DNA from: Alphaproteobacteria bacterium
GTDB lineage: Bacteria; Pseudomonadota; Alphaproteobacteria; MED-G09
Assembly: GCA_018658685.1 (NCBI GenBank)
Contig: JABHUT010000145.1
Span: 1 to 34,022 of the forward strand
Length of the DNA stretch: 34,022 bases
Reading direction: 5' to 3'
In this document: positions 406 to 29,974 of the stretch, piece after piece
Layout: every line of letters begins with the position of its first letter
Position numbering within the stretch: the first letter of the stretch is position 1
Notes under the pieces: model-generated
Told to the model about the DNA's origin: nothing
What the model saw: only the letters and a program-made list of their open reading frames with translations
Databases searched by the model: none
Translations under genes and position numbers: made by a program

Positions 406-411
406 AATTAA

Positions 412-1587: not shown

Positions 1588-3003
1588 TTATTTTTCACTT
1601 TCAAATGCAGGTGTTGCAATAGCCATATACATTTTTATTCTATTTGTAAGCCTTAATCTTTTTGCATTAATTAAAAGGCTTTCGGCATTAAGTCTTCTTG
1701 ATTGTGAATCTAAAAGTTCAAAAATTGTACTTAGACCCCTATTATATTGCTCCAAAGTTAATTCTTCTGCCGCTTTAGATTCCTTGAAAGATTTATTAAT
1801 TGCATTTTCTCTTTTTTCTAAGGTTTCTTCAGCAGCTATTGCATTCTCTGCTTCCTGAGCAGCTTCAAGGAGGGCTTGCGAGTAATTCTCTAAAATAGAC
1901 TCCAATTGAGCTTTTTTGATTTGAGAGTCTGCAACTCTTTTTCCACCCTGAAAAATACTTTGAGTTAAAGAGCCAATTAATGAACCAGCTAATCTTTTTG
2001 GCTCAAGGGCATCAGACCAATTATCATCTAAAGTACTCCATTGAGCGTTAAGTGATAGGCGGGGTAAAAACGCTAATCGAGTGGAAGTTAGCTGTAAACC
2101 AGCTGACTCAATTCTAGCCTCTAATACTCTGATATCTGGCCTTAGTGGAAGTCTCTCTGAGGGAGTTCCAATATCTGGATTCTCCGGTAAATTCGGTAAG
2201 CCACCAGGAGTTATGGAAGCATTTGGATATCTTCCTATTATAACCTCAAGAGTCCTTGCGGTTTCATAAAGTATTTGTTGTCTATTGATCAGATCGGCTC
2301 TTGAAGACTCTAATTGTGACCTTGCCAATCTTAAATCCCTACTTTGCGCGATACCTTTTTTATATCTATTTTCAACTCTTTTTAGGGTACTTAATCTTGT
2401 TTCAAGATTTCTTTCTGCCAAATCTTTTTGAAGCTTTGCTTCAGAAAAAATATACCATGATTGAGCTGTTATCCCAGCAATAGAAAGCTTTACAAATTCA
2501 TAATCAGCCTCGGCAGCCTCAGACTCTCTATATGCAGCACGAGATTGCCTTGAGAGTCTTCCCCATACATCAGCCTCCCAATTTAATTGAACACCTAAAC
2601 TATCCTTATATGAATACAATCTATCAATATCACCATTAGCTTCGATAGTTGTGGATAATTGATTTTTTGATAAGGAGGCGCTTATAGACGGCAGTAAGGG
2701 TGCTATTGATGCTCTAGATGATGCTCTCGCAATATCTAGTCTATTTGATGCAACTCTAAGATTTCTATTATTTTCTATAGCTTCAATGATAATATTTTTT
2801 AATTCTTTGTCTTTAAAGGTTTCAACCCAAGCGTCTATATTTTTGAGAGATTGATAGGATGTTGACCAATCAGATGGAAGAGATGGTAGATCTTTCTCAA
2901 ATTTATCTTTAGTTGAAGAGCAGCCTGAGATAGTTACTAGAAGTAATATTATCAAAGTATTTTTTGTTTTTCTTTTTACTGTATTGAAATAATTTAAAAA
3001 CAT
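1588..3003 (-). CDS. Efflux outer-membrane lipoprotein, NodT/OprM (TolC-like) family
   Basis: 471-aa ORF with lipobox LVTISG-C (Cys28) after a basic/hydrophobic signal peptide. Two long alpha-helical/coiled-coil repeats are typical of outer membrane factor proteins. Its stop abuts the adaptor start codon. Confidence 0.85.
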   Translation of the reverse strand: MFLNYFNTVKRKTKNTLIILLLVTISGCSSTKDKFEKDLPSLPSDWSTSYQSLKNIDAWVETFKDKELKNIIIEAIENNRNLRVASNRLDIARASSRASIAPLLPSISASLSKNQLSTTIEANGDIDRLYSYKDSLGVQLNWEADVWGRLSRQSRAAYRESEAAEADYEFVKLSIAGITAQSWYIFSEAKLQKDLAERNLETRLSTLKRVENRYKKGIAQSRDLRLARSQLESSRADLINRQQILYETARTLEVIIGRYPNASITPGGLPNLPENPDIGTPSERLPLRPDIRVLEARIESAGLQLTSTRLAFLPRLSLNAQWSTLDDNWSDALEPKRLAGSLIGSLTQSIFQGGKRVADSQIKKAQLESILENYSQALLEAAQEAENAIAAEETLEKRENAINKSFKESKAAEELTLEQYNRGLSTIFELLDSQSRRLNAESLLINAKRLRLTNRIKMYMAIATPAFESEK

Positions 3004-3160
3004 TACCGCCCTAACAACAGAATCAAATATATCATAACATTATTTTATTAAACTAATATGCAATAAGTATTATGAATTTATCATTTTTATGAATAGTATT
3101 AATTTCAATTTAAAATGTCTAAATTCACAATTTCTAATTAATTAAAAAAAGGTTTAAAAA

Positions 3161-3682
3161 ATGGTTAAATTTTCAAAAGAAATTGGCCCTAATCATTACC
3201 GCGAAACTTTCGGTCGATATTTCGAAGATTTTAAAGTAGGCGATATTTACGAGCATAGGCCTGGAAAAACGGTAACAGAGTATGACAATCATTTGTTCAC
3301 TCTTATGACCCTTAATACTCATCCACTTCATTTTGATGCTGAGTTTGGGAAAGGTACAGAATTTAAACAAAATCTTGTTGTGTCCACTTATACCTTATCT
3401 CTTTTAATTGGTATGAGCGTCTCAGACTGCAGTCAAAAAGCCGTGGCTAATTTAGGTATGACTGATGTGAAATTTACTTTACCTGTCTTTTGCGGCGATA
3501 CAATTTATGGATCATCTGAGGTTCTTGATAAACGAGAGTCAAAGTCAAGGAAGGGTCAAGGTATAGTTGAGATTAAAACAACAGGCACTAATCAAGATAA
3601 TAAAGTTGTTTGCACTTTTCTAAGACAAATATTGATACCTGCAAAAGGTCATGCGGTTGAGGACAAAATTGAAAATTATTAA
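3161..3682 (+). CDS. MaoC-like (R)-specific enoyl-CoA hydratase / acyl dehydratase (single hot-dog)
   Basis: 173 aa. The hydratase-2-like segment is HLFTLMTLNTHPLHFDAEFG and the C-terminal hot-dog wrap is GDTIYGSSEVLDKRESKSRKGQGIVEIKTTGTNQDNKVV. First gene of a 3-gene operon. Confidence 0.8.
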   Translation: MVKFSKEIGPNHYRETFGRYFEDFKVGDIYEHRPGKTVTEYDNHLFTLMTLNTHPLHFDAEFGKGTEFKQNLVVSTYTLSLLIGMSVSDCSQKAVANLGMTDVKFTLPVFCGDTIYGSSEVLDKRESKSRKGQGIVEIKTTGTNQDNKVVCTFLRQILIPAKGHAVEDKIENY

Positions 3683-3708
3683 TAATTACAAAAAATAGGT
3701 GTAATAAA

Positions 3709-4482
3709 ATGAATGAATCAATATTTAGCCTAAAGGGTAAAACAGCTCTGGTCACTGGTGCGGGAACAGGAGTTGGTGCATCATTAGCAATGACTCTTTC
3801 AAAGGCTGGAGCAAAAGTTGCTTTAGCTGCTAGAAGAGTAGAAAAATTAAAAGAAACTGAAGAAAAAATTTCTGAATCTGGAGGAATTGCAAAAAGCTTC
3901 TCTCTTGATGTTTCGAGTGAAAAGAATGTTCAAGATTGTTTGGAGTCTATAAGTAAAGAAATAGATGAAATCGATATTCTAGTGAATAATGCTGGGACAA
4001 CAACTGTTGCATCTATTGATGGAACAACCTCTGAAGATTGGGATACGGTAATAAATACTAACTTGAGAGGTCCATGGTATTTAGCTAAAGAGTGGGTCAA
4101 GAGAAGAAGAAGTAATGATTTAAGTGGAGGAAATGTGCTTAATATCTCCTCAATAACGGGTGAAGCAGTTCAAAAAGGAAACGGAGTGTATTGTGTTTCA
4201 AAAGCTGGCCTTTCTCACTTAACAAGACAAATGGCATTAGAATGGGCAAAATACGGGATAAGGGTTAATTCATTAGCCCCAGGCTATATGAGAACCGATA
4301 TAAATAAAGAATTCATAGATTCTGATATAAGCAATGATATGATTAAAAGGATTCCAATGCGAAGAGTTGGTTCAATTGATGAAATGGATGGAGCGCTTTT
4401 ATTACTCGTAAGTGACGCTGGTTCCTATATAACTGGTTCAACACTTATTGTTGATGGCGGTCATTTATTGAGAGATTTATAA
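3709..4482 (+). CDS. Short-chain dehydrogenase/reductase (classical SDR)
   Basis: 257 aa with TGAGTGVG dinucleotide-binding motif, NNAG, and catalytic YCVSK (YxxxK) preceded by SSITG. Confidence 0.9.
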   Translation: MNESIFSLKGKTALVTGAGTGVGASLAMTLSKAGAKVALAARRVEKLKETEEKISESGGIAKSFSLDVSSEKNVQDCLESISKEIDEIDILVNNAGTTTVASIDGTTSEDWDTVINTNLRGPWYLAKEWVKRRRSNDLSGGNVLNISSITGEAVQKGNGVYCVSKAGLSHLTRQMALEWAKYGIRVNSLAPGYMRTDINKEFIDSDISNDMIKRIPMRRVGSIDEMDGALLLLVSDAGSYITGSTLIVDGGHLLRDL

Positions 4483-4483
4483 A

Positions 4484-5068
4484 ATGAAAGAAATTGATTT
4501 CTATTTTGACTTTGGAAGTCCAACTTCCTATCTAGCTTATACACAACTTACTTTAATGGCCGAGAGAAACAATGCTGAGCTAATTTTTTATCCTATTCTC
4601 CTTGGAGGAATTTTTAAAGCTACAGGAAATAGTCCACCTGCAGCAGTTCCTGCAAAAGGTAAGTACATGATGGTAGACCTTCAAAGATTTGCTGATAAAT
4701 ATAAAGTTCCTTATGCGAGAAACCCATTTTTTCCTGTAAACACTCTTCCTTTAATGCGAGGAGCAGTTTCTTATCAGAACAATGGAGACTTTAAAAAGTA
4801 CGTAAATGTAATGTTTGAAAACATGTGGATTAAACCAAAAAATTTAAATGATATAGAAATATTGAAAACAGTTTTAACAGATAATGGTTTTGATCAGCAT
4901 GATTTCATTGAAAGAATTTCAGATCAAAATGTTAAAGAAAAATTAATTTTAAATACTGAAAATGCAGTTCAAAAAGGCATATTTGGAGCTCCAACTGTTT
5001 TTGTTGGAGATGAAATGTTTTTTGGTCAGGATAGACTAGATTTTATAGAAGATCTTATAAGTCATTAA
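4484..5068 (+). CDS. 2-hydroxychromene-2-carboxylate isomerase family protein (DsbA-like / GST-kappa-like)
   Basis: 194 aa. N-terminal DFYFDFGSPTSYLA and C-terminal FGAPTVFVGDEMFFGQDRLDFIE follow the pattern I recall for NahD-type HCCA isomerases. SPxS stands in place of the CxxC of true DsbA. Starts 1 nt after the SDR stop. Confidence 0.8.
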   Translation: MKEIDFYFDFGSPTSYLAYTQLTLMAERNNAELIFYPILLGGIFKATGNSPPAAVPAKGKYMMVDLQRFADKYKVPYARNPFFPVNTLPLMRGAVSYQNNGDFKKYVNVMFENMWIKPKNLNDIEILKTVLTDNGFDQHDFIERISDQNVKEKLILNTENAVQKGIFGAPTVFVGDEMFFGQDRLDFIEDLISH

Positions 5069-5153
5069 ATTTATTATAAAATTTTAACTTTATTTAATAA
5101 ATTTTTATAAAAATTATCATTATTTTACATCAAAAATTTATAATTAGAAAAAG

Positions 5154-5171
5154 TTGGTATCCTTCTTGCAT
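5154..5171 (+). promoter_or_regulatory. Candidate sigma-54 (-24/-12) promoter for the porin-amt operon
   Basis: TTGGTATCCTTCTTGCAT compared with consensus YTGGCACGrNNNTTGCW. GG (5156-5157) and GC (5168-5169) sit at the canonical 12-nt offset and the -12 TTGCA is perfect. It lies 44 nt upstream of the porin ATG. The -24 half is degenerate (TGGTAT). Confidence 0.35.
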
Positions 5172-5214
5172 ATTAATACATGCGAATTACGCAAATAACT
5201 TTATGGAGGAGTAA

Positions 5215-5862
5215 ATGATTTTTAAAAAGACACAAAATAAAATTAAAAAATTTGCATGTGCAATGATTCTTAGTGTCACTATGTCGGGAATGGCCTTAGC
5301 TGCTGTTGAGTGGAATACTGCTGTAACAAGTGAATATATATGGCGAGGAATGTCTCAAGGTAAGGGTGCTGCTGTTTCAGGTGGTATCGATGTTTCTGGT
5401 GAATCTGGTTTTTCTGCTGGCGTTTGGGTATCCAATGTAGATTTTGGTGACAATGCTACTTATGAATTAGATGTTTATGCAGGGTATAGTTTTGGACCTG
5501 TAAGTGTTGGTTATATTTATTATGCTTACCCAGATAATACTGATGAAGGGTATGATTTTAGTGAAGTAAATATTTCTGCTGATATAGGAGCTTTTTCTAT
5601 AGGGGCTAATATTTTGGCTGATGCTGACTGGGATATGGATTTTGGTGATGACGTTTATTATACACTTGATACTGGTTTCGCAGCTACAGAAGCTATTGGT
5701 ATTAGTTTTCACCTTGGTTTTTACGACTATGACGCAGGCGATGAAGAAACAGATTACGGAATCTCAATTGATTTTGACTCTGGATTCTCATTTGGAATAA
5801 TTGACAGCAGTAGAGATGACAGTGACCCATTCTTCGTAATCACTTACTCTATTGGCGGCTAA
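5215..5862 (+). CDS. TorF-family (TIGR02001 / Gcw_chp-type) putative outer-membrane porin
   Basis: 215 aa with a signal peptide ending ALA-AVE. NTAVTSEYIWRGMSQGKGAAVSGGIDVSGESGFSAGVWVSNVDFGDNATYELDVYAGYSF matches the family pattern (TSdYvfRGisQ...GfyaGvWaSnVdf...EiDlYgGy). It is aromatic/Gly/Asp-rich with beta-strand periodicity to the C-terminus. Confidence 0.7.
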   Translation: MIFKKTQNKIKKFACAMILSVTMSGMALAAVEWNTAVTSEYIWRGMSQGKGAAVSGGIDVSGESGFSAGVWVSNVDFGDNATYELDVYAGYSFGPVSVGYIYYAYPDNTDEGYDFSEVNISADIGAFSIGANILADADWDMDFGDDVYYTLDTGFAATEAIGISFHLGFYDYDAGDEETDYGISIDFDSGFSFGIIDSSRDDSDPFFVITYSIGG

Positions 5863-5897
5863 TTGAATATCTAACTTATAAATAATTGGAAATTAAA

Positions 5898-7190
5898 ATG
5901 AAAAATTTAATAAAAAAAGTATTAGTGATTGCCGGGTTTAGTTGCCTAGTATTCACTGGAACAGCTAATGCAGAAGTTAGTGCAGAGACAGCTTATGTAT
6001 TTAATACATTTTCTTTCTTGGTCCATGGCTTCCTAGTTATGCTGATGGCATTAGGCTTTACTTGTCTTGAGGCTGGTTTAGTTAGAACCAAAAACACTGC
6101 AACAATATGCTTAAAAAATGTTGCTCTCTATAGTCTTGCTGGAATTATGTTCTACTTAATTGGTTACGGTTTAATGTATAATGACGTAAATGGTTACATT
6201 GGATCAGCAGCGTTATGGAATCCTGAAACAACAGTAGACTCAGGTGACGGATATTCTAAAATGTCAGATTGGTTCTTCCAAATGGTATTTTGTGCAACTG
6301 CTATGTCTATTGTTAGTGGAACTATTGCCGAGAGAATTAAATTAGTACCTTTCTTAATTTTTGCTATTTTCCTTACTGGAATAATATACCCAATTCAAGG
6401 TTCTTGGACTTGGGGTGGCGGATGGTTATCTGAGATGGGTTTCTCTGATTTTGCAGGTTCAACAATTGTTCATTCAGTCGGTGGTTGGGCTGCACTAACA
6501 GGTGCTTTGATTATTGGTCCCCGTATTGGTAAATATGGTCCAAATGGCCAGGTTAATGCTATACCAGGGTCAAATCTTCCACTAGCAACTATAGGTACAT
6601 TTATCCTATGGTTTGGATGGTTTGGGTTTAACGGCGGTTCTCAATTAGCCTTAGGGTCAGCCGCTGATGCTGCAGCAATAGCAAATGTTTACGTAAATAC
6701 CAACATGGCTGCTTGCGCTGGTTTAGTTGCAGCTCTTATTTTATCAATTCTTCTTTATAAAAAGACTGATTTAACATTTGTTCTTAATGGTGCCTTAGCT
6801 GGTCTAGTTGCAATAACTGCAGGTCCAGATGTAGCAACTCCATTACAAGCAATGATTATAGGAGCTATTGGTGGTATTCTAACAACTCTTGCAATACCTC
6901 TTTTAGATAAAATTGGTATTGATGATGTAGTTGGCGCAATTTCAGTTCATCTTGTATCAGGTATATGGGGAACTTTAGCCGTAGCAATTCCAGGCTTAAA
7001 TGGAAGTGGCGATATAGGAACCCAGATAATTGGTATTGTATCAATTGGTCTCTTTACTGTAATTCTCAGTGGAATTGGATGGTTTGCTCTTAAGGCCATC
7101 TATGGCTTGAGACCTTCAGAAGAAGAAGAAAATATTGGGTTAGACATTTCGGAATTAGGAATGGATGCTTACCCAGAATTTAAAAACTAG
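5898..7190 (+). CDS. amt: Ammonium transporter (Amt family)
   Basis: The track ORF begins at TTG 5886, but ATG 5898 (MKNLIKKVLV...) is the more likely start. It has a cleavable-type signal sequence (...TGTANA-EV) and is multi-TM. Amt signatures FSDFAGSTIVHSVGGWAALTGALIIGPRIGKY and VVGAISVHLVSGIWGTL supply the twin-His pore residues. Confidence 0.93.
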   Translation: MKNLIKKVLVIAGFSCLVFTGTANAEVSAETAYVFNTFSFLVHGFLVMLMALGFTCLEAGLVRTKNTATICLKNVALYSLAGIMFYLIGYGLMYNDVNGYIGSAALWNPETTVDSGDGYSKMSDWFFQMVFCATAMSIVSGTIAERIKLVPFLIFAIFLTGIIYPIQGSWTWGGGWLSEMGFSDFAGSTIVHSVGGWAALTGALIIGPRIGKYGPNGQVNAIPGSNLPLATIGTFILWFGWFGFNGGSQLALGSAADAAAIANVYVNTNMAACAGLVAALILSILLYKKTDLTFVLNGALAGLVAITAGPDVATPLQAMIIGAIGGILTTLAIPLLDKIGIDDVVGAISVHLVSGIWGTLAVAIPGLNGSGDIGTQIIGIVSIGLFTVILSGIGWFALKAIYGLRPSEEEENIGLDISELGMDAYPEFKN

Positions 7191-7232
7191 TCATAGATAG
7201 GTTTCCTCCCCCCCAAGAAAAACCAATGACTA

Positions 7233-7269
7233 AAACCACCGTACTTTATCCCCTGAAGTACGGTGGTTT
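7233..7269. terminator. Bidirectional intrinsic terminator hairpin between convergent amt and FAD-oxidase genes
   Basis: Perfect 14-bp stem AAACCACCGTACTT (7233-7246) / AAGTACGGTGGTTT (7256-7269) with a 9-nt loop. On the minus strand it is followed by TTTTAG. On the plus strand the stem ends in TTT followed by A/T. The minus-strand gene stop (7268-7270) lies in the stem edge. Confidence 0.7.
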
Positions 7270-8623
7270 AAAATATTTTACCGGGATTCATTATATTATT
7301 AGGATCAAGTGCTTTTTTTATTTGAGCCATAACGTCTACTGATATTCCTTTTTCTTTTCTTAGATGTTCTTTTTTCCCCAAACCTATTCCATGTTCACCT
7401 GTACATGTTCCGCCCATCTTTAATGCTCTAGTAACGAGTCTGTCATTAATATCTTTTGCCTCGTTAACTTCATCTTCATTTTCAGGATCAAGTAATAAAA
7501 TCAAATGAAAGTTTCCATCACCAACATGCCCAACGATTGGAGCAATAATAGTTGAGGATTCTAAATCTTTTTTTGTTTCTAAAATACATTCTGTTAAAGA
7601 GGAAATCGGAACACAAATATCAGTTGTAAAACTTTTTTTTCCAGGTGCTAAACTTAATGCAGCATAAAGTGCGCTATGGCGTGCACTCCAAAGTTTGTCT
7701 ATTTCTTCTTGCTGGTCCGACCAGTTAAAATTAATTAAACTATTTTCTTTAGCAATTTCTTCAAATTTTTCTATCTGCTCCCTAACACCAAGAGGTGTTC
7801 CATGAATTTCTATAAATAAAGTGGGTTTTTCTTCATGACTAGTTTTTTTGTATTGATTAATAGCCTTAATTTGCAGCTCATCTAAAAGTTCAATTCTAGA
7901 TAGAGGAAGACCAATTTGGATAGCTTCGATGACAGTATTTACTGCTCCGTCAAGCTCTGAAAAGCTACATACGCCAGCAGAAATAGCCTCAGGCCTTCCA
8001 TGTAACCTTAGGCTAATTTCAGAAATAAATCCTAACGTTCCTTCTGATCCTAGCATTAGGTGCGTTAGATCATATCCAGCCGATGATTTCCTTGCCCTTG
8101 AACCTGTTTGGATTATTTTACCATCAGGCATAATGACCTCTAAGCCAATAACTTGTTCTCGAATAGTACCGTATTTTACTGTATTTGTTCCTGATGCTCC
8201 AGTTGAACACATACCCCCAATAGATGCATTAGCGCCCGGATCAACTGGAAAGAATAATCCCGTATCTCTCAAAAAGGAGTTTAATTCTTCACGTGTTACA
8301 CCTGCTTGAACTCTACAATCCATATCTTCCATATTAACCTGAATAACTTTATTCATATTTCTTGAGTCAATTGTAATACCGCCATTTACAGCATGCACAT
8401 GACCCTCGAGTGCCGTCCCAGTTCCATAAGGTATTACAGGAATATTATTTTTAGAGGCAAAAGAAATTATTCTGGATACTTCATTTGATGTTTCAGGAAA
8501 AACTACTGCATCCGGAAGATTTTCAGGAACATGCCAAGATTCATCATGGCTGTGTTGAGATCTAACTGATTCAGAGGTTACTAATCTATCACCAAATAAA
8601 TTTTCTAATTCAGATAAATCCAT
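7268..8623 (-). CDS. FAD-linked oxidase, GlcD / D-lactate (D-2-hydroxyacid) dehydrogenase family
   Basis: 451 aa. The PCMH-type FAD-binding N-domain includes IPVIPYGTGTALEGH and ASIGGMCSTGASGT. The C-terminal FAD-oxidase_C signature is GGTCTGEHGIGLGKKEHL ... MNPGKIF. Confidence 0.8.
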   Translation of the reverse strand: MDLSELENLFGDRLVTSESVRSQHSHDESWHVPENLPDAVVFPETSNEVSRIISFASKNNIPVIPYGTGTALEGHVHAVNGGITIDSRNMNKVIQVNMEDMDCRVQAGVTREELNSFLRDTGLFFPVDPGANASIGGMCSTGASGTNTVKYGTIREQVIGLEVIMPDGKIIQTGSRARKSSAGYDLTHLMLGSEGTLGFISEISLRLHGRPEAISAGVCSFSELDGAVNTVIEAIQIGLPLSRIELLDELQIKAINQYKKTSHEEKPTLFIEIHGTPLGVREQIEKFEEIAKENSLINFNWSDQQEEIDKLWSARHSALYAALSLAPGKKSFTTDICVPISSLTECILETKKDLESSTIIAPIVGHVGDGNFHLILLLDPENEDEVNEAKDINDRLVTRALKMGGTCTGEHGIGLGKKEHLRKEKGISVDVMAQIKKALDPNNIMNPGKIF

Positions 8624-21447: not shown

Positions 21448-22460
21448 TGAGCATTAAAACTTATAGAGAGTCTATTATTGAGGCAATGATCCTCGAGATG
21501 AAACGTGATGAGAAAGTGTTTGTGATTGGTGAAGACATTTCAGGTGGAAGAGGTTGTGGTGATTTTGAGGGCGAAGCTGCTGGTGGCCCAATGGGTTTAA
21601 CTCAAGGTTTATGGGATGAATTTGGAGCAAAAAGAGTCATTGACACACCTATTAGTGAAACAGCAATTATGGGAGCGGCTGCAGGAGCAGCTCTTTCTGG
21701 TCTTAGGCCAATAGCAGAATTAATGTTTTCAGATTTTTTTGGTGTTTGTTTTGACCAAATTTATAATCAAGCAGCAAAGTTTCGTTTTATGTATGGTGAA
21801 CAAGGCGCAACCCCTCTCGTAATTAGAACGATGATAGGCGCAGGAATTGGTTGTGGTCCACAACACTCTCAATCACCTTATTCAATTTTTGCAAATATAC
21901 CTGGTTTAAAAGTAGTCACGCCTTCAAATCCTTATGATGCGAAAGGGCTTTTAATTTCTGCAATTCGAGACAATGATCCGGTCATGTTTTGTGAACATAA
22001 ATCCCTTCTTGGTATGGAAGGAGAGGTCCCTGATGATTCTTACGAGGTTCCTCTTGGAAAAGGGAAAATTATAAAAGAAGGTAATGATATTACCATTGTT
22101 GCTATTGGTCAGATGGTTGGAATTACTCAAGGATGTCTAACAAAATTAGAGGAAAAAGGTATTTCTGCAGAAATTATCGACCCTAGATCTCTATCGCCTT
22201 TTGATGAGGATATGGTTTATGATAGTGTTGAAAAAACTGGGAGACTTTTAGTGATTGATGAATCAAATCCAGTTTGTTCATTTGGATCTTGGATAACTAG
22301 TATGGTTAGTGATGAAGTATTTTCTTCTCTTAAAGCTCCTACAAGAGTTTTAACACCACCACATTGTCCTGTTCCCGCCGCACCTAACCTAGAGGCTGCT
22401 TATTTACCCGACATGGAAAGGATTGTTGAGGCAACAGATTATCTTACAAATTACAGCTAG
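21447..22460 (+). CDS. 2-oxoacid/acetoin dehydrogenase E1 component, beta subunit
   Basis: 337 aa. The ATG overlaps the alpha stop by 1 nt (TAATG). The pyrimidine-binding domain is VIDTPISETAIMGAAAGAALSGLRPIAELMFSDF, followed by a transketolase-C-like tail. Confidence 0.9.
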   Translation: MSIKTYRESIIEAMILEMKRDEKVFVIGEDISGGRGCGDFEGEAAGGPMGLTQGLWDEFGAKRVIDTPISETAIMGAAAGAALSGLRPIAELMFSDFFGVCFDQIYNQAAKFRFMYGEQGATPLVIRTMIGAGIGCGPQHSQSPYSIFANIPGLKVVTPSNPYDAKGLLISAIRDNDPVMFCEHKSLLGMEGEVPDDSYEVPLGKGKIIKEGNDITIVAIGQMVGITQGCLTKLEEKGISAEIIDPRSLSPFDEDMVYDSVEKTGRLLVIDESNPVCSFGSWITSMVSDEVFSSLKAPTRVLTPPHCPVPAAPNLEAAYLPDMERIVEATDYLTNYS

Positions 22461-24292
22461 TCTAATAACTCGAAATTTAATAAAACGTTACCAGCCATAT
22501 TACCACCATATTGGTAGCCAGAATTCATAAATAGATTACTGCCCGCTATAACCGGTCCAAGACCTTCAATGGTTCCGCCATATGCTTTAATATCCGTAAA
22601 TTCTGAAAAATCAACATTCGTGTTAAATTCCCATAACAGCTTGCCTGAAGTATTATCCAAAATATACATCCATCCATCCATGCCAGCGGCAATTATTATA
22701 TCATTTGTAGAACTAAGAGCTGCTGAAATTCCTCTATCACAAGCACCACCAAGCCCTTCACATCTATCTTGAGGTTCAAATTTCCAGTTTAGTGATCCGG
22801 TTTTCGCATCCAGAGAGTAGACTCCGGGTGTAGCTGGACCAGGAAATTTATTAATATAGTTTTTATCAGAAATTCCCGCAAAAATACTCTTTCCATCCGT
22901 CGTCATACCCCAATGAACTCCACCAGCAAACCCACCTCTTCCTATTTTTTTTGACCATAAAAGCTTTCCATTTTGATCTGGATCTAAAGCATAAACATGT
23001 CCTGATTTCCTGCCTCCAAAGAGTATACTCTTGTCATCATCCAAGTCTATTAAGATTGTTGAGGCTCCAAAATCCCAATCTGGTCCATTTTCTTCAGGAC
23101 AACCTGATCCAGATGAAATAAAGCAACCCATATTCCATGCATCACCAGTCTGTGCTTGAAAAGACCAAACAATCCCACCTTTAGTTTTATCAATTGCTAA
23201 AATTGAATCACTCGTATCTGCTGCTGGTGATGTATATGATTCACCAGTCCCTACATAAATAAGATTCCTCTTATTATCCACTGTTGGAGAATTCCATACA
23301 GGAACCCCAGAAGGTGCTAAAATTTTCTTACCAGATTCATTATATTTTCCAGTATGTTTCGGAGGTACTGGTATAGAATAAGTTCTCCATAACTCATCTC
23401 CATTTTCAGCACTTAAAGCCATTACACCACCCCTAAAAGAACAACACTCATAATCTGGGTTTGCTCCATCAGCCCACTCTCGAGATGAAAGTGGAACATA
23501 AATGACGTTATCGTATACTCGAACTGATCCAGTTAGTATTACTCTTGGATGATATCTAAGAGATTTAGTCCAGAGGTTTTCTCCAGTAATTGCATCATGC
23601 TTATAAACATTTCCTTCATAATCGCCAGAGAAAACAAAATACTTTCCGTTTATTTTTTCTAATACTGGTGCAGATCTAATTTCGCCTTGAATTTTAGTTC
23701 TCCAGCGAACACAGCCATCATCTCTATCTAAAGCATAAAGATGTGAATTTTGATCGCCGATAAAGACTACATTACCAGAAACAGAAGGTTGAGACCTTGA
23801 TCTTGTGGCGCCCGGAAATGCAAAGACCCATTTTAATTTTAGTTTATCTAAATTTTGACTATCTATATTAGAGTTAGTATTTCTAGTATTTTCTCGATCA
23901 TAACCCCATTGAGTATATGAATTATTATTGAATTTTATAGTTGAATTTTTTTCACAATATTTTGGTTCAGGTAAATTTGTTGTTATAGGGCTTCCACTAA
24001 TATATTCTGCAAGCTTAACCTTTTCTTTATCTGTTAAGTGAGACGATTGAGATGACATTACACCATTTAAAGTTTCTAATATATAATCTGCTGACATGGC
24101 AGAGAATGTAGTCGCATGAGGTGCTCTTGGCGTACCCCCGCTATGACAACCCAAACAAGATTCATTAAAAATTTTTCCTGAAATCTTATCTGATCCGGTA
24201 AATAAACCCCCCTCATCTTCAACAGCTGTACTTGCATGCGTTGGGGATGAGTAGGTTGATATAAATAACAGTAAGAATAAAATTTTTTTCAT
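22457..24292 (-). CDS. Quinohemoprotein: N-terminal cytochrome c domain fused to PQQ-type beta-propeller dehydrogenase (polyvinyl-alcohol-dehydrogenase-like architecture)
   Basis: 611 aa with a signal peptide (MKKILFLLLFISTYSSPTHAS). The heme-c motif CLGCH is at residues 46-50 (nt 24143-24157), with a candidate distal Met in NGVMSS. The propeller opening is WGYDRENTRNTN...LKLKWVF. A vicinal Cys-Cys (YECCSF, nt 23441-23446) resembles PQQ alcohol dehydrogenases. Confidence 0.75.
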   Translation of the reverse strand: MKKILFLLLFISTYSSPTHASTAVEDEGGLFTGSDKISGKIFNESCLGCHSGGTPRAPHATTFSAMSADYILETLNGVMSSQSSHLTDKEKVKLAEYISGSPITTNLPEPKYCEKNSTIKFNNNSYTQWGYDRENTRNTNSNIDSQNLDKLKLKWVFAFPGATRSRSQPSVSGNVVFIGDQNSHLYALDRDDGCVRWRTKIQGEIRSAPVLEKINGKYFVFSGDYEGNVYKHDAITGENLWTKSLRYHPRVILTGSVRVYDNVIYVPLSSREWADGANPDYECCSFRGGVMALSAENGDELWRTYSIPVPPKHTGKYNESGKKILAPSGVPVWNSPTVDNKRNLIYVGTGESYTSPAADTSDSILAIDKTKGGIVWSFQAQTGDAWNMGCFISSGSGCPEENGPDWDFGASTILIDLDDDKSILFGGRKSGHVYALDPDQNGKLLWSKKIGRGGFAGGVHWGMTTDGKSIFAGISDKNYINKFPGPATPGVYSLDAKTGSLNWKFEPQDRCEGLGGACDRGISAALSSTNDIIIAAGMDGWMYILDNTSGKLLWEFNTNVDFSEFTDIKAYGGTIEGLGPVIAGSNLFMNSGYQYGGNMAGNVLLNFELLD

Positions 24293-24315: not shown

Positions 24316-24966
24316 TTATTTCTTAATTCCAGCATATAAGATATCTACGTGATCAGAGGAATACTTACCAATATTTATAGTTCGATTAATCATAATTGTT
24401 CTTAAGCTTAAATGCTCTAGCCCTCCATAGAATTGACTTTCAAAGACAGGGAAATTTAGACTCTCTTTAACTTCACCAATCTCTATTGAATTCTCAATAA
24501 TATTTTTGAGTATTTTTGAATATCTTTTTTTAACTATATGGGCTTCAGAATCTTTATATTTTTCCCAACGCAATTCTTTAATAAAGAGTTTATGAATTTT
24601 TGGAGTTGCTTTCATCCCTTCAAGATATCTGATAGCTAAAAATAGTAGGCGAGAGTATAGGTCTGTTACTTCCTGGATATCTTTTTCAGTTTTTTCTATA
24701 AAAGGCTCAAACCATTCATTAACTATTTGATTAAGCAAATCTTGTTTATTATCAAAATATTTATAAATAGTTGCTTCAGATATTCCAGCTGCTTTAGAAA
24801 TTTTTACCATTGATAAATCATTGATTCCACCTTCTTCGAGAATTCTTTTTGACGCTTCAATTATTTCTTTTGGGCGAGAGCTTTTGCGACGTTTCCAAGC
24901 ATTTTGATGGCTTGATATAGCTTTAATATTAGATTCTGATAATTGATTTTTTACCGATCTTCCCAT
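24316..24966 (-). CDS. TetR/AcrR-family transcriptional regulator
   Basis: 216 aa. The N-terminal HTH is LSMVKISKAAGISEATIYKYFDNKQDLL, followed by a helical ligand-binding domain. A strong RBS (AAGGAAGG) precedes the ATG. It lies 23 nt upstream of the quinohemoprotein gene on the same strand. Confidence 0.85.
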   Translation of the reverse strand: MGRSVKNQLSESNIKAISSHQNAWKRRKSSRPKEIIEASKRILEEGGINDLSMVKISKAAGISEATIYKYFDNKQDLLNQIVNEWFEPFIEKTEKDIQEVTDLYSRLLFLAIRYLEGMKATPKIHKLFIKELRWEKYKDSEAHIVKKRYSKILKNIIENSIEIGEVKESLNFPVFESQFYGGLEHLSLRTIMINRTINIGKYSSDHVDILYAGIKK

Positions 24967-25062: not shown

Positions 25063-25560
25063 GTGGTTAAGGAAAATAAAAAAATATGGGAAGAATTAAT
25101 CTCAAAACCTAAAGGGCTTCCAAATGATATTTTTTCTGGACTTAGTTTTCCTGGCGGAACTTTTTTTATCGACACCAATACAAACTTATTAATTTATAAA
25201 TCAACAGGCATGATTGTTAATAAAAAAAATCTAAATAACTTTATACATGCTCACCCTATTTTTTTATTCACTTCTACATTAAGGGGTTCAGGTGCGTCCA
25301 TACAGGATATTTTTGATTTATTGGATTATGATGTAAATAATGGTCCGATGCTTGGCCAGTGTAATATGTCTTTCAAATCACCATTACAATTAGAACGAGA
25401 ATATAAGATTGATGGAAAAATTGTTTCACTAAAAGAAAAGATAAGCAAAAAACTCGGAAGGATTAAGATTTTAGATTTTACTTTATCAATGTTTGATAAT
25501 CATAATTCGAAAGTAGCTAGTGTTGATTATGTATGGATACTTCCGGAGAAGGAGGCATAA
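25063..25560 (+). CDS. Hot-dog fold protein resembling the non-catalytic N-terminal half of MaoC dehydratases (MaoC_dehydrat_N-like)
   Basis: 165 aa with a GTG start after AAAGG. AHPIFLFTSTLRG and MLGQCNMSFKSPLQLEREYKIDGKIVSLKEK...GRIKILDFTLSMFDNHNSKVASVDYVWIL match the hot-dog helix/sheet pattern. No D-x-N-P-x-H catalytic motif is present. Confidence 0.45.
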   Translation: MVKENKKIWEELISKPKGLPNDIFSGLSFPGGTFFIDTNTNLLIYKSTGMIVNKKNLNNFIHAHPIFLFTSTLRGSGASIQDIFDLLDYDVNNGPMLGQCNMSFKSPLQLEREYKIDGKIVSLKEKISKKLGRIKILDFTLSMFDNHNSKVASVDYVWILPEKEA

Positions 25561-25967
25561 TGTATAGTAAAGGATCTAATTTAAAGGATTGGGCGTTTTT
25601 AGTACCTCAGGAAAGTATGAATACTTGGGCTGTTATTCTAGACGATCCAAACCCTATTCATCTAGATGCTAATGCTGCCAAACAAGTCGGTTTGGGTGAC
25701 AAAACTATAAATCAAGGCCCGGCAAATATTGCTTATATATTGAACATGATTGAAGAAAATTTTCCTAACTCTCGAATTCTAAAGATGAATAATAAGATGA
25801 CTGATTCAGTTCTTGAGGGTGATTTAGTAACTGTTTCTGGACAGATTTCAGAAATTAAAGCTGAAGGTGATCAATTTATTGCTTCATGTTCAATAAAGTT
25901 AACTGTAGGAGAAGATAAAATTGCTGTATTATCTGAAATTGATGTATTGTTTGAGAGATCTCAATAA
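25560..25967 (+). CDS. MaoC-like (R)-specific enoyl-CoA hydratase, catalytic hot-dog subunit
   Basis: The track ORF starts at 25533. ATG 25560 overlaps the upstream stop by 1 nt (TAATG) and follows GGAGAAGGAGG, so it is preferred. The hydratase-2 motif is present: WAVILDDPNPIHLDANAAK (D-x-N-P-I-H-x5-A). Confidence 0.75.
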   Translation: MYSKGSNLKDWAFLVPQESMNTWAVILDDPNPIHLDANAAKQVGLGDKTINQGPANIAYILNMIEENFPNSRILKMNNKMTDSVLEGDLVTVSGQISEIKAEGDQFIASCSIKLTVGEDKIAVLSEIDVLFERSQ

Positions 25968-26377
25968 ACCTTTCTTAGCTTCATCCACCAGTCCTGAACT
26001 TCCGCTGCATGACTTTCGCCATATTCTTTTGCTAAATCAGATGCGTCCTCAGGTACTTTTTGCATTTCTGTAACCCCGACAGGTGCTGCGTCTTCAATAG
26101 GGTCCAACCATTCGAGATTAATATCCTCAATAACTCCATCATATTGTGCACCAGCTGCTTCATGATATTCACTGATTTGATGTTTAAGTAAAAAATCTAA
26201 ATATGTGGGGTAGACCAAAAGAGTATAATAGGAACTTCTTTCTCTTCCTCTATAGTATTCATAGCGAATAATGCAATCCTCATTAGCGTGTGATTGTTTA
26301 TATAGTTCTTTTGACAGTTCTTCGAATTTTTGCTCTTGACCTTCTACTATTTTAATATGGGCTAATAAAGACGACAT
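25961..26377 (-). CDS. ABM (antibiotic-biosynthesis-monooxygenase / Dabb ferredoxin-like) domain protein with ~45-aa C-terminal extension, paralog 1
   Basis: 138 aa. LLAHIKIVEGQEQKFEEL...EDCIIRYEYY...YYTLLVYPTYLDFLLKHQISEYH follows the ABM pattern (beta1-KpG-x-F ... E-x-gC-x-Y ... E-x-W-x-s-x-a-x-H-x-x-s-x-H). The family call is made by eye only. Confidence 0.45.
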   Translation of the reverse strand: MSSLLAHIKIVEGQEQKFEELSKELYKQSHANEDCIIRYEYYRGRERSSYYTLLVYPTYLDFLLKHQISEYHEAAGAQYDGVIEDINLEWLDPIEDAAPVGVTEMQKVPEDASDLAKEYGESHAAEVQDWWMKLRKVY

Positions 26378-26429
26378 GTTTAACTCCTTTGCTAAATTAT
26401 TATATTATTTTCTTATAAAGTTCTTTTAT

Positions 26430-26843
26430 TTATTTTTCTCTTAAATCAAACCACCATTTTTGAACTACAGCAGGATAGGTTTCTATATATTCTTTTGCTA
26501 ATTCAGGAGCATTTTCAGGTAACTCTTGCATTTCTGTAATACCTACGGGTGCTGCATTTTCAATAGGATCTAACCATTCAAGGTCTAGGCTCTCAATAAC
26601 TCCTCCGAATTGAGCTCCAGCCTCTTCATGATGTTTGCTAATTTGATGCTTAATAAGAAAATCTAAATATGTTGGATAAACTAATAACGAGTAATAAGAG
26701 TTTTTCTCTCTTCCTCTATAATGCTCATAACGAATAATACAATCTTCATTGGCATGCGATTGTTTGTAGAGTTCCTTTTGAAGTTCTTCGAATTTTTGTT
26801 CTTGACCCTCTACGACTTTAACGTGCGCAAGTAGTGATGACAT
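26430..26843 (-). CDS. ABM-domain protein with C-terminal extension, paralog 2
   Basis: 137 aa, collinear with paralog 1 (104 of 137 aligned residues identical by hand alignment), with the same ABM-like pattern. Confidence 0.45.
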   Translation of the reverse strand: MSSLLAHVKVVEGQEQKFEELQKELYKQSHANEDCIIRYEHYRGREKNSYYSLLVYPTYLDFLIKHQISKHHEEAGAQFGGVIESLDLEWLDPIENAAPVGITEMQELPENAPELAKEYIETYPAVVQKWWFDLREK

Positions 26844-26871
26844 GATTGCTTCCTTTTTATTATTGAATTAT

Positions 26872-27387
26872 TTATTTATCTAGCTTTCTATATTTTTCAT
26901 TATCGGCCCTAAGGTTGAAACCTAAAAATAAGCCTCCGAGATCACCTCTAATACCCTCTGATTTGACAGAAAAATTATCATCTAAAATATACAACCTTCT
27001 ACTAACCTTCCAGCCTTCAGGTGTTTTCGAAAATTCATCATGATATCTACCGCAATAAACATTAACATCTTGAATTCCAGCCTCGGTTATTTCACCGCCT
27101 GAGGTTAGTCCATAACTTTCTACTTCCGCTTTATCACCATTTATCTCAATGGCTACATTGCTGATTAAATGCCAGCTATGACCACCTTTCTCAACTTCCA
27201 TAACTGCGGGGATAAAACCTTTTGCATCTCCTGCATAAAATCCATAATCAATGAAGCCATCTTCTATAAAGCAACTTCTCAAGAGGTCTTCATCCATCCA
27301 GTCAAGTGCACGACAATATCTTGTTAAGCAATCGTTAATACTTTGTATTGCCTCAATTTTTTCTAATCTTTCTTCAATATTGCTCAT
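26872..27387 (-). CDS. SnoaL_4-type NTF2-fold protein (ring-hydroxylating-dioxygenase-beta-like fold)
   Basis: 171 aa. IEAIQSINDCLTRYCRALDWMDEDLLRSCFIEDGFIDYG is the typical SnoaL_4 opening. First gene of the minus-strand SnoaL_4/ABM/ABM unit. Confidence 0.6.
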   Translation of the reverse strand: MSNIEERLEKIEAIQSINDCLTRYCRALDWMDEDLLRSCFIEDGFIDYGFYAGDAKGFIPAVMEVEKGGHSWHLISNVAIEINGDKAEVESYGLTSGGEITEAGIQDVNVYCGRYHDEFSKTPEGWKVSRRLYILDDNFSVKSEGIRGDLGGLFLGFNLRADNEKYRKLDK

Positions 27388-27423
27388 AATGCCTCCATAT
27401 AAATAATCGTTGATAACTTACTC

Positions 27424-27436
27424 TACAAACACAAAA
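27424..27436 (-). promoter_or_regulatory. Shared 13-nt element copy 1 (TTTTGTGTTTGTA on minus strand), 36 nt upstream of the SnoaL_4 start
   Basis: Exact 13-mer TACAAACACAAAA (plus strand), identical to 29962-29974. Its TTGTA end can serve as a -35 for the minus-strand gene. Confidence 0.3.
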
Positions 27437-27440
27437 AATA

Positions 27441-27469
27441 TTGTCAATTAGTAAAGAGGCAAGTATAAA
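27441..27469 (+). promoter_or_regulatory. Candidate sigma-70 promoter for the PQQ dehydrogenase gene
   Basis: TTGTCA (27441-27446), 17 nt, TATAAA (27464-27469). It lies about 30 nt upstream of the TTG start and its AGGAG RBS. Confidence 0.35.
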
Positions 27470-27500: not shown

Positions 27501-29465
27501 TTGCGAAGTCTATTAATTATTTTATTCTTTATTTTATATACTTCTCAAGGTTACTCAGAGGTTGATGACTGGTCTTCTTATGGAAAAGACTCAGGCGGCG
27601 GCCATTATTCTAAAGCTACAGAGATTACTCCTGAAAATGTAAAAAATTTAAAAAAAGTTTGGACACATCGATCTGGTGATTATCACAAGGGTTTAAACTG
27701 GACAGAAGATGTTACACCAAACAGCAGTCAGCAAACATCTTTTCAAGCCACTCCTCTTTTAGTGAATGAAACTTTATATTATTGCACTCCTTATAATAGA
27801 GTTTTTGCTTTGGACCCTGCAACAGGTGAGGAAAAATGGATTTTTGATCCGAAAGTTGAAAAAGAGGGTAAAGCACTTATGCACTGCAGAGGTGTTGGTA
27901 GTTGGATTGATAGTGAAAAAGTTGAATCTGATAAATGTTATCATAGGATTATCACAGGAACAATTGATGCAGAGCTCTTTTCTATTGACGGAAAAACTGG
28001 AGAGCTATGTAAGGACTTTGGTGATGATGGTCTTGTCGATTTAAGATCCGGTCTAGGCGATCACAATCCAGCATTTTATTATAGTGTTTCACCACCAGCT
28101 ATTATAGGTGATTTAGTAATCGTTGGCGGAGGCATTCCTGATAATGTAAGTACTTCTGTACCGGGAGGTGTAGTTCGTGCTTATGATATTCGGACAGGTG
28201 AGTTAGTTTGGTATTGGGACCCTATTCCTCCAGGTCAAGAACCAGTTATCGATGATCTAGGAAACCAGTTATATCAAAGAGGGACAACAAATGTTTGGTC
28301 GATAATTTCGACCGACCCTGAATTAAATCTTGTTTATTTACCAACTGGTAATACTGCAGCAGATAATTATGGTGGCCATCGAAATGGATCAGACTATTAT
28401 TCTAGTTCTGTTGTTGCATTAAACGCCTCAACTGGAGAGGTTGTTTGGCATTTTCAAACAGTTCATCATGATATTTGGGATTATGATGTTCCATCACAAC
28501 CAACTTTTTATGATATAAAAAAAGACGGAAAGATTATTAAGGCTTTAGCTCAAACAACAAAGATGGGATTAGTTTTTTTACTGAATAGAGAAACTGGTGA
28601 ACCTATTTTTCCAATTGAAGAAAGAGATGTACCCCAAGGAGCCGTGGATGGTGACTATGTTACAAAGACACAACCTTTTCCATCAAAGCCAGCACCTCTT
28701 ACTCCGACTTATTTAGATCCTGAAGATGTTTTTGGCTTTACTCCTTGGGATAAAGGATATTGTAAAAAAGCTGCCGAAGATTATAGGAATGAAGGTCTTT
28801 ATACACCTCCATCAATTGAAGGTAGTGTCCATTATCCAAGCGCGATTGGGGGAGCGAATTGGGGTGGTCCTGCAATTGATGCTTCTAGAAATATTCTCAT
28901 TGCAAATACTATGAACCTCTCCAGTACTATAGTAATGATCCCAAGAAGTGATTGTGATAAAGCCCTTAAAGATTTAGCAAGGGATAGCGTTCAATCAAGA
29001 TTTTCAGCATTGCAACAAAATGAAGGGACGCCTTATTGTACAATTAGAGCTTTTGGTTTTATGTCACCTTTAGGTGTTCCATGTACAAAACCACCTTGGG
29101 GCAATCTAACGGCAATTGATTTAGATACTGGAGAGCATTTGTGGCAAATTCCTCTTGGAACTTCTAAAGATTTAGCACCTTTTCCATTTTGGTGGATAAA
29201 AGGGGCTCCTAATATAGGGGGACCTACAGTAACTGCTTCAGGCTTAACATTTATTGCGGCAACTAGTGATTATTATTTGCGAGCATTTAATACTTTAACA
29301 GGTGAAGAGTTAGCTAAGTTTCGATTACCAACTGGGGGCCACGCAACACCTATGACTTATAAAAATAAGAATGGCAAACAATTTGTAGTTATAGCTGCTG
29401 GAGGTCACTGGGCTGTAGGATCACCAGCTTCTGATCACTTGATAGCATATGCCCTTCCAGACTAG
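27501..29465 (+). CDS. PQQ-dependent dehydrogenase, glucose/quinate/shikimate family, secreted form without N-terminal membrane anchor
   Basis: TTG start 8 nt after AGGAG, with signal peptide MRSLLIILFFILYTSQGYS. 654 aa. Motifs: DDWSSYGKDSGGGHYSKATEITPENVKNLKKVWTHRSGD, HHDIWDYDVPSQPTF and GGANWGG. No vicinal Cys-Cys, as in the GDH type. Confidence 0.85.
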   Translation: MRSLLIILFFILYTSQGYSEVDDWSSYGKDSGGGHYSKATEITPENVKNLKKVWTHRSGDYHKGLNWTEDVTPNSSQQTSFQATPLLVNETLYYCTPYNRVFALDPATGEEKWIFDPKVEKEGKALMHCRGVGSWIDSEKVESDKCYHRIITGTIDAELFSIDGKTGELCKDFGDDGLVDLRSGLGDHNPAFYYSVSPPAIIGDLVIVGGGIPDNVSTSVPGGVVRAYDIRTGELVWYWDPIPPGQEPVIDDLGNQLYQRGTTNVWSIISTDPELNLVYLPTGNTAADNYGGHRNGSDYYSSSVVALNASTGEVVWHFQTVHHDIWDYDVPSQPTFYDIKKDGKIIKALAQTTKMGLVFLLNRETGEPIFPIEERDVPQGAVDGDYVTKTQPFPSKPAPLTPTYLDPEDVFGFTPWDKGYCKKAAEDYRNEGLYTPPSIEGSVHYPSAIGGANWGGPAIDASRNILIANTMNLSSTIVMIPRSDCDKALKDLARDSVQSRFSALQQNEGTPYCTIRAFGFMSPLGVPCTKPPWGNLTAIDLDTGEHLWQIPLGTSKDLAPFPFWWIKGAPNIGGPTVTASGLTFIAATSDYYLRAFNTLTGEELAKFRLPTGGHATPMTYKNKNGKQFVVIAAGGHWAVGSPASDHLIAYALPD

Positions 29466-29479
29466 GCTGTTGATTAATA

Positions 29480-29920
29480 TTAAATAATTATTAATGCTTC
29501 TCTAAATATCATGATAGCTAGAGCTATCCAGCTTAACATAAAAAGAGAAAATCTAAACCACACAAGATTAATTGTTGCTTGAAGAATAGAATGAATAATT
29601 CTAATTACAACATAAGTCCAAGCACAATAAAGGTGAAGAACATCCGTATGATTAAGACCCCAAATTATAAATGAAATTGCGTAAAATATAGTTGGTTGTT
29701 CAAAAAGATGATTATAATTATCCGCAACTCTTTCAACTTTACTAGGAAAAATTCCACCAATTGAAGCAGGGTGTGAGAACTTTTGAACATCAACTCCATC
29801 TTCTTCAAGTTTTTTTGCTGCGGGGAGTCTAGTTGCATACATCCAAACCATCATCACAAAAGATAATACACACATTATAATGGCTGGTTGTAATATTAAA
29901 TCATTCATAAGTTTCTCCAA
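29480..29920 (-). CDS. MAPEG-family small membrane protein (glutathione-transferase-like)
   Basis: 146 aa with four hydrophobic segments. RVADNYNHLFEQPTIFY resembles the R-x-x-x-N-x-x-E-x-x-P core of bacterial MAPEG proteins. Confidence 0.5.
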   Translation of the reverse strand: MEKLMNDLILQPAIIMCVLSFVMMVWMYATRLPAAKKLEEDGVDVQKFSHPASIGGIFPSKVERVADNYNHLFEQPTIFYAISFIIWGLNHTDVLHLYCAWTYVVIRIIHSILQATINLVWFRFSLFMLSWIALAIMIFREALIII

Positions 29921-29961: not shown

Positions 29962-29974
29962 TACAAACACAAAA
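29962..29974 (-). promoter_or_regulatory. Shared 13-nt element copy 2, 41 nt upstream of the MAPEG start
   Basis: Exact TACAAACACAAAA. On the minus strand, TTGTAA -16 nt- TAATAT follows, giving a plausible -35/-10. Confidence 0.3.

Follow-up and report, generated by a model that had tools for sequence, protein, structure and literature searches.

The ABM (antibiotic biosynthesis monooxygenase) superfamily includes SnoaB, YgiN and LsrG, and ABM-fold proteins form dimeric barrels (PMC4835899). Adjacent ABM pairs have been described in pentangular polyketide clusters (PdmH/PdmI, FkmO1/O2; PMC4383371), and in the pradimicin pathway PdmH is required while PdmI is dispensable (PMC4383371). Two other systems bear on such pairs, namely siroheme decarboxylase, which is a heterodimeric barrel of paralogues, and anthracycline tailoring, in which an NTF2-like cyclase (SnoaL) is found alongside an ABM oxygenase (SnoaB). 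Here we analyse a tandem pair of ABM-like genes, upstream copy U and downstream copy D, in a stretch of 34,022 nucleotides (hereafter the window; contig JABHUT010000145.1, GenBank assembly GCA_018658685.1) from a marine alphaproteobacterium of the PS1 clade (OCS116 cluster / 'Rhodobiaceae'), represented by a metagenome-assembled genome (MAG) of 1.30 Mb that is 83% complete and has 35% GC. An earlier sequence-only reading of the window had proposed that U and D are an ancient pair acting as an obligate heterodimer.

On balance, our analysis leans towards a lineage-specific tandem duplication, after which D would have kept the ancestral role and U would have been sub- or neo-functionalised for a different substrate or step, in a TetR-linked island for the catabolism of hydrophobic compounds. 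The two open reading frames (ORFs) align without gaps, with 104 of 136 residues identical and 92% positives (BLASTP, E 1e-82), and identity is 82% in the core and 65% in the C-terminal tail (residues 91–136). Their nucleotide sequences are 75% identical. All of codons 2–7 differ between the copies, yet both encode SSLLAH, and 44 of the 104 identical residues use different codons; by the Nei-Gojobori method the proportion of synonymous differences (pS) is 0.75, i.e., saturated, with a nonsynonymous distance (dN) of 0.14. No identical run exceeds 17 nt, which gives no hint of recent gene conversion, and this shortness, together with saturated pS in both core and tail, led us to reject a recent duplication as well.

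The two proteins belong to an extended form of the ABM fold, which we call ABMx. The Pfam ABM model (PF03992) matches D with 25.2 bits over residues 1–75 and U with 22.7 bits, so that by the curated cut-off of 23.1 bits D is a member and U falls just below, while the upstream and downstream copies of a distant pair described below (locus L069) score 42.5 and 44.1 bits; no NCBIfam model matches U or D. An AlphaFold2 (AF2) model of D from a diverse alignment (A3; 34 sequences, 25–88% identity) reached a predicted local distance difference test score (pLDDT) of 92.1 and a predicted template modelling score (pTM) of 0.83 for the single chain, an earlier model from a shallow alignment having given a pLDDT of 67 and an unreliable tail. 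The final model comprises a beta-alpha-beta-beta-alpha-beta core (residues 2–90), a confident extended segment (91–113) and short helices at 114–122 and 129–136. Foldseek returned 102 matches in the PDB at E ≤ 1e-3, with a TM score of about 0.8 (TMt 0.8–0.87) and a root-mean-square deviation of 1.6–2.0 Å, and the listed ones have the ABM/DABB fold or are closely related to it in fold (NIPSNAP). They include PA3566, CC_2132/3bm7, LsrG, Rv0793, YgiN, RslO4 and olivetolic acid cyclase, as well as SnoaB with the first model, but the alignments cover ~91–100 columns and none of these solved structures covers the tail. In a profile comparison, the solved protein closest in sequence is 3bm7, a protein of unknown function, and the match is limited to the core (E 6.7e-8).

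When 1.84 billion representative proteins were searched with a profile, only 176 clusters matched at E ≤ 1e-3, of which ~40 are full-length (130–142 aa). Nine residues are invariant down to 25% identity to D (Y39, R43, F62, H66, H72, W90, D92, W130 and W131). H66 and H72, invariant in 34–38 diverse members, are part of an H66-x2-S69-x2-H72 arrangement of which S69 is present in both U and D and H66, the first histidine, aligns to 3bm7; we take these three residues to be the generic ABM His-Ser-His motif of helix alpha2/alpha3. A role in IsdG-type haem degradation was considered and rejected, as the histidines are those of the generic motif and neither IsdG nor MhuD is among the top 50 fold matches. 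The ~45-aa tail consists of an LEW-DP junction, an acidic loop and two short helices with an invariant WW end, a pattern that is kept across the wider family. This conservation across divergent members makes the tail an integral, defining part of the family, and both U and D have the defining length (~130–142 aa), junction and C-terminal WW. Judged by sequence, ABMx is a rare, uncharacterised branch of the ABM superfamily.

The distribution of the pair was followed across the PS1 family, where all 25 species genomes have a match at E ≤ 1e-3, three of them (G005, G013 and G020) only weakly and to a short ordinary ABM protein. Both copies occur in tandem in four of the ten species of genus g1 (G000, which is the window's genome, G017, G021 and G024) and in matching metagenome contigs (L003–L006, L045–L047). 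A single copy, 86–88% identical to D, stands at the syntenic place in g1 species G016, G019, G022 and G023, and the gene is likewise single in 11 of 11 g2 species that carry it and in the L007 and L012 lineages. The single-copy loci are contiguous, in the order MAPEG–SnoaL_4–ABMx–TetR–pyrroloquinoline quinone (PQQ)/cytochrome c, some with a MaoC pair added, so the absence of U is not an assembly gap. The cytochrome-c/PQQ protein is 81–96% identical among tandem genomes versus 74–76% to single-copy genomes, and this greater likeness of the neighbouring genes indicates that the tandem genomes form one subclade. A 654-aa soluble PQQ dehydrogenase gene is found at all tandem loci and is absent from the single-copy ones, a co-occurrence that counts as one event because the tandem loci are one clade. 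In the single-copy relatives MAPEG is the first gene of a same-strand MAPEG–SnoaL_4–ABMx array; this is the ancestral arrangement, which in the window is split by the opposite-strand dehydrogenase gene. A possible decayed second copy in g2 (G004, 97459–97755, reported with internal stops) was discarded, since the gene there is intact and encodes an ordinary tail-less ABM protein of 100 aa, the stops being located past its end.

Some individual loci depart from this pattern. On a 1429-bp contig (L103, JGI 3300034791) the gene at 65–481 (P0004) is a hybrid, U-type over residues 1–92 (identical to P0016) and D-type over 93–138, and is followed by the MaoC pair; either unequal crossover has collapsed the tandem into one gene or the metagenome assembly has produced a chimera. 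The ABMx gene of a genus g3 genome (G015, locus L052, 2484–2888) is 90% identical to D although its neighbours have diverged (SnoaL 51%, PQQ/cytochrome c 64%), a hint that ABMx alone was transferred or recombined, or that the bin is contaminated. One further MAG, G018, holds two single-type ABMx genes on different contigs (C11:220–633 and C24:52678–53091; 88% and 86% identical to D), so that either the bin mixes strains or the gene has a dispersed duplicate.

The divergence of the two copies is strongly one-sided. Maximum-likelihood (ML) trees unite U, D and the single-copy g1 sequences in a supported g1 clade (93/94; 97/94 in a second tree) but leave them as a polytomy, in which U is monophyletic (100/99) on a stem of 0.18–0.26 substitutions per site, the D stem being ~0.02; an approximately unbiased (AU) test did not reject a U+D clade (p 0.47). 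Among orthologues the ratio of nonsynonymous to synonymous change (omega) is 0.03–0.08 for U and 0.02–0.04 for D, and in most species pairs U has 2–3 times the dN of D. At six positions U has fixed residues disjoint from those of D and the single-copy sequences (I10V/G, S22Q, Y41H, Y79F, I86L and A124P), the number of D-specific fixed substitutions is 0, and U retains all nine family-invariant residues. Y41 lies on strand beta2, between invariant Y39 and R43. Synonymous divergence (dS) is saturated between sister-species orthologues too, even within the tandem subclade, so that saturation dates the duplication only to about genus-level divergence, and rate-corrected arithmetic on dN values places it near the split of the tandem-bearing and single-copy subclades.

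Much of what the sequence-only reading described is borne out by these results, i.e., collinear ORFs of 138 and 137 aa, scrambled synonymous sites (confirmed in the dN/dS check between the copies), long-term purifying selection on both, an ABM-like core and a conserved ~45-aa tail, which proves to be conserved family-wide and is confidently placed in the AF2 model. The predicted SnoaL_4–U–D transcription unit also stands, with a SnoaL_4 match of 70.3 bits, short spacers and no internal terminator-like site. The age of the pair needs qualification: its synonymous sites are indeed saturated, but those of sister-species orthologues are equally so, and 'ancient' here means only about as old as the genus.

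A second tandem pair was found in another alphaproteobacterial genus, g44, where copies that are 59% identical are conserved in four genomes (L069, 4530–5399; G065, G239 and G367). That pair lies downstream of two TonB-dependent receptor genes and directly upstream of a cytochrome P450 gene, which is followed by genes for an alcohol dehydrogenase (ADH), a short-chain dehydrogenase/reductase (SDR), an iron-containing ADH and a coenzyme A (CoA) ligase, and its upstream copy has F at the Y41 position. The neighbours of distant ABMx genes recur, namely SnoaL-like, VOC/glyoxalase, TetR, CoA ligase, cytochrome-c/PQQ dehydrogenase, FAA-hydrolase, P450, Rieske, RPE65 and TonB receptor genes. Locus L100 (JGI 3300035199, 1–8399) combines an ABMx gene at 47% identity with TetR, a two-domain VOC protein, an FAA-family hydrolase, CoA ligase, SnoaL and cytochrome-c/PQQ dehydrogenase, and this gene set, nearly that of the PS1 clade, argues for a conserved pathway. 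Four distant ABMx members adjoin P450 genes, an adjacency that probably reflects island content; P450 as a specific partner of ABMx is not supported for the PS1 clade, as none is encoded in the window and ~10 are scattered elsewhere in the genome.

The proposal of an obligate heterodimer is not supported by the comparison with relatives. The sequence-only reading had itself stated beforehand that single-copy orthologues functioning alone in close relatives would refute it, and single-copy orthologues are present in g1 sister species, in g2 and in the L007 lineage; at least four sister species have one, 86–88% identical to D, at the same locus, and 11 of 11 gene-carrying g2 species also have one copy. 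Its suggestion that orthologous tandem pairs be sought in other genomes gave a divided answer, with the tandem in four of ten g1 species and an independent pair in g44 on the one side and a single copy in the other PS1 genera searched on the other. An obligate pair should co-occur wherever the system is present, which U and D do not, and should diverge in a reciprocal or complementary manner, whereas we count 0 D-specific versus 6 U-specific changes and find the nine invariant residues kept in both copies. One copy suffices in the relatives, the ancestral protein thus has no need of a partner paralogue, and D, unchanged since the duplication, has no derived residues and is thus not adapted to one; nor has U, which keeps every invariant residue, undergone complementary degeneration. 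A heterodimer in the wider sense, obligate or preferred, in which U and D form one asymmetric alpha+beta barrel and the tail is a docking or lid element, we regard as unlikely. It would draw on the dimeric barrels of ABM-fold proteins, the heterodimeric siroheme decarboxylase and the adjacent ABM pairs of polyketide clusters introduced above, on the placing of U and D in one predicted operon with strong ribosome-binding sites, on the fact that each of the five tandem lineages has retained both copies under purifying selection, and on the conserved g44 pair. The AF2 monomer model places the tail confidently on its own chain, which counts against this reading, although chain swapping is still compatible with it, and U and D may form a facultative or preferred heterodimer. 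A bolder conjecture, which we hold to be quite improbable, is that ABMx proteins are prone to evolve heterodimeric barrels, such that the PS1 and g44 pairs are independent asymmetric two-site enzymes in which the WW tail of one subunit clamps its partner and the site of the upstream copy is re-tuned (Y41 to H or F). If true, it would offer a natural, datable transition from homodimer to heterodimer, with the single-copy sister species as the 'before' state.

The remaining alternatives concern the duplication itself. That U is a redundant dosage duplicate, doing the same job as D and only raising expression, would agree with the shared operon, the same length and the presence of all invariant residues in both copies; symmetric divergence or homogenisation would then be expected, whereas the divergence is strongly one-sided with fixed changes beside invariant residues, and synonymous sites are saturated with no loss or homogenisation in five lineages (longest identical run 17 nt), so that we consider this very unlikely. 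An older duplication, going back to the base of the genus or further, would make the single-copy state of the relatives secondary, with U lost in the single-copy sister clade. The best tree does put U outside D and the single-copy sequences (89/72 in one tree, 22/0 in another), and the rate-corrected age of the duplication is ~1.2 times that of the D/single-copy split (arithmetic on dN values). That branch is very short and unsupported, however, and a long U stem would be drawn to the base; moreover, the g2 species and the L007 lineage all have one copy, which makes this the ancestral condition of the family either way, and an older duplication appears rather improbable to us. One-sided divergence, the retained invariant residues of U and the dehydrogenase gained in the same lineage are best fitted by specialisation of U. 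Several points weigh against this preferred account nonetheless: the tree cannot separate a duplication inside the subclade from an older one after which the sister clade lost U; the keeping of the pair in every descendant and the independent g44 pair would fit a heteromer equally well; and the position of Y41 in the pocket, on the same strand face as Y39 and R43, was inferred from strand periodicity and not from coordinates.

Under specialisation of U, events may have run as follows. A single ancestral ABMx protein would have worked on its own, presumably forming homodimers as other ABM proteins do, from a MAPEG–SnoaL_4–ABMx array beside the TetR regulator and the cytochrome-c/PQQ dehydrogenase, the large surrounding island serving the catabolism of hydrophobic, terpenoid- or lipid-like compounds. 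The gene would have been duplicated in one subclade of a single genus, where the soluble PQQ dehydrogenase gene would also have been inserted at the locus. D would have kept the ancestral sequence and with it the ancestral function, while U would have diverged quickly at an early stage, losing two tyrosine hydroxyls (Y41H, Y79F), before coming under purifying selection and taking on a different substrate or reaction step. As for chemistry, fold and gene neighbours suggest cofactor-independent oxygenation or isomerisation/tautomerisation of a quinol-, enol- or diketone-type intermediate, which would make ABMx a cytoplasmic enzyme step in the oxidative catabolism of an imported hydrophobic compound.

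Table 1. Positions of the tandem pair and of neighbouring features in the window (nt, nucleotides).
Feature	Position	Strand	Basis
PQQ dehydrogenase, 611 aa, N-terminal cytochrome c domain	22457..24292	-	PQQ, PQQ_2, Cytochrome_CBB3 matches
TetR-family regulator of the conserved block	24316..24966	-	PF00440 50.6 bits
Overlapping hot-dog/MaoC gene pair, convergent on D	25063..25967	+	ORF list, Pfam
Copy D (138 aa), extended ABM-like (ABMx), conservative ancestral-like paralogue	25961..26377	-	ORF, Pfam ABM, AF2 model
U–D spacer, 52 nt, Shine-Dalgarno AAGGAG 7 nt before D ATG	26378..26429	-	sequence
Copy U (137 aa), fast-evolving paralogue, confined to tandem-bearing subclade	26430..26843	-	ORF, 76% identity to D
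SnoaL_4–U spacer, 28 nt, Shine-Dalgarno AAGGAAG	26844..26871	-	sequence
SnoaL_4 (NTF2-like), first gene of present transcription unit, directly upstream of U	26872..27387	-	PF13577 70.3 bits
Promoter-like site TTGACA-16-TAGAGT upstream of SnoaL_4; consensus match only	27420..27447	-	sequence; overlaps 13-mer
Soluble PQQ dehydrogenase, 654 aa, glucose/quinate family, between MAPEG and SnoaL_4	27501..29465	+	PF01011 764 bits; TIGR03074 model positions 152-783
MAPEG-family membrane protein	29480..29920	-	PF01124 75 bits; synteny

The features of the predicted transcription unit and its surroundings are given in Table 1. Both spacers carry a strong Shine-Dalgarno sequence, and no terminator-like site was found between the SnoaL_4, U and D genes. 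At the far end of the unit, the MaoC gene (25533–25967, plus strand) and D (25961–26377, minus strand) overlap by 7 nt at their 3' ends, which leaves no space for a terminator between the converging units; the MaoC pair is found in tandem loci and in some single-copy loci, and is for this reason not tied to the duplication. Upstream, an identical 13-mer, TTTTGTGTTTGTA (minus strand), occurs at 27424–27436 and 29962–29974, ahead of SnoaL_4 and MAPEG, respectively. It has 2 matches in this genome against 0.13 expected, and the flanks of the two sites are weakly similar. We claim no conserved operator, as the 13-mer is absent from all 96 fetched loci of other genomes; the splitting of the operon may have duplicated a piece of promoter that contained it.

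Among the neighbouring genes, SnoaL_4 adjoins ABMx in nearly all PS1 loci. In sister species G022 and G019 (L051, 4536–5417, and L066) SnoaL_4 is missing and MAPEG is followed after 24 nt by a single ABMx gene; as these two species keep ABMx, SnoaL_4 was rejected as an obligate partner. The TetR gene adjoins ABMx in single-copy loci and is also present in distant loci L100–L102, while the cytochrome-c/PQQ dehydrogenase is kept as a neighbour in all PS1 loci and recurs in distant locus L100. The island in the window further holds acyl-CoA dehydrogenase pairs, MaoC hydratases, a DUF35-thiolase pair, a Rieske oxygenase, SDR/ADH enzymes, CoA ligases and a VOC protein, in addition to MAPEG, the TetR regulator and the two PQQ dehydrogenases. 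The ~10 P450 genes of the 1.3-Mb genome lie on contigs C112, C151, C96, C169, C115, C81, C20, C43 and C48, an unusually high density that fits a specialised oxidative catabolism.

As a product of gene duplication the U/D pair is nothing unusual, and its interest is that it points to a rare, uncharacterised ABM branch with an invariant WW extension, which sits in oxidative catabolic islands (P450, Rieske, PQQ, VOC and CoA ligases) of abundant streamlined ocean bacteria. With one copy or two in sister species and a second pair elsewhere, it is a natural system for asking whether ABM paralogues act as separate homodimers or merge into heterodimers, and a convenient one for finding which reaction ABMx adds to marine terpenoid or lipid degradation.

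Compared with the systems described at the outset, ABMx shares with the ABM superfamily (PF03992; ActVA-Orf6, SnoaB, YgiN, LsrG, PA3566 and CC_2132/3bm7) the ferredoxin-like core of ~95 aa, the H66-x2-S69-x2-H72 motif and a Pfam match at threshold, and differs by the C-terminal extension of ~45 aa, alignments to solved ABM structures stopping at about residue 95–100. Siroheme decarboxylase, AhbA/AhbB, is a case of duplicated ferredoxin-like domains that, though unfused, assemble into a heterodimeric barrel (PMC4835899), but it belongs to another family, has an extra helix-turn-helix (HTH) domain and needs both subunits wherever the system occurs, whereas for ABMx the single-gene state is the rule. 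The anthracycline tailoring enzymes SnoaL and SnoaB resemble the locus in that SnoaL_4 lies directly upstream of ABM-fold genes and SnoaB is among the Foldseek matches; the U/D locus, however, has no polyketide synthase (PKS) and a catabolic context, and the loss of SnoaL_4 from two sister species that keep ABMx shows that the two are not obligate partners. The pairs of pentangular type II polyketide pathways (PdmH/PdmI, BenH/BenJ and FkmO1/FkmO2) are biosynthetic, stand in actinomycete PKS clusters and consist of short ABM proteins that are deeply diverged paralogues, while U and D are 76% identical, have single-copy relatives and are found in a catabolic setting in a 1.3-Mb marine alphaproteobacterium. 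What they have in common with U and D is that adjacent, co-directional ABM genes have been kept as a pair, and the asymmetry between a required PdmH and a dispensable PdmI resembles that of D and U.

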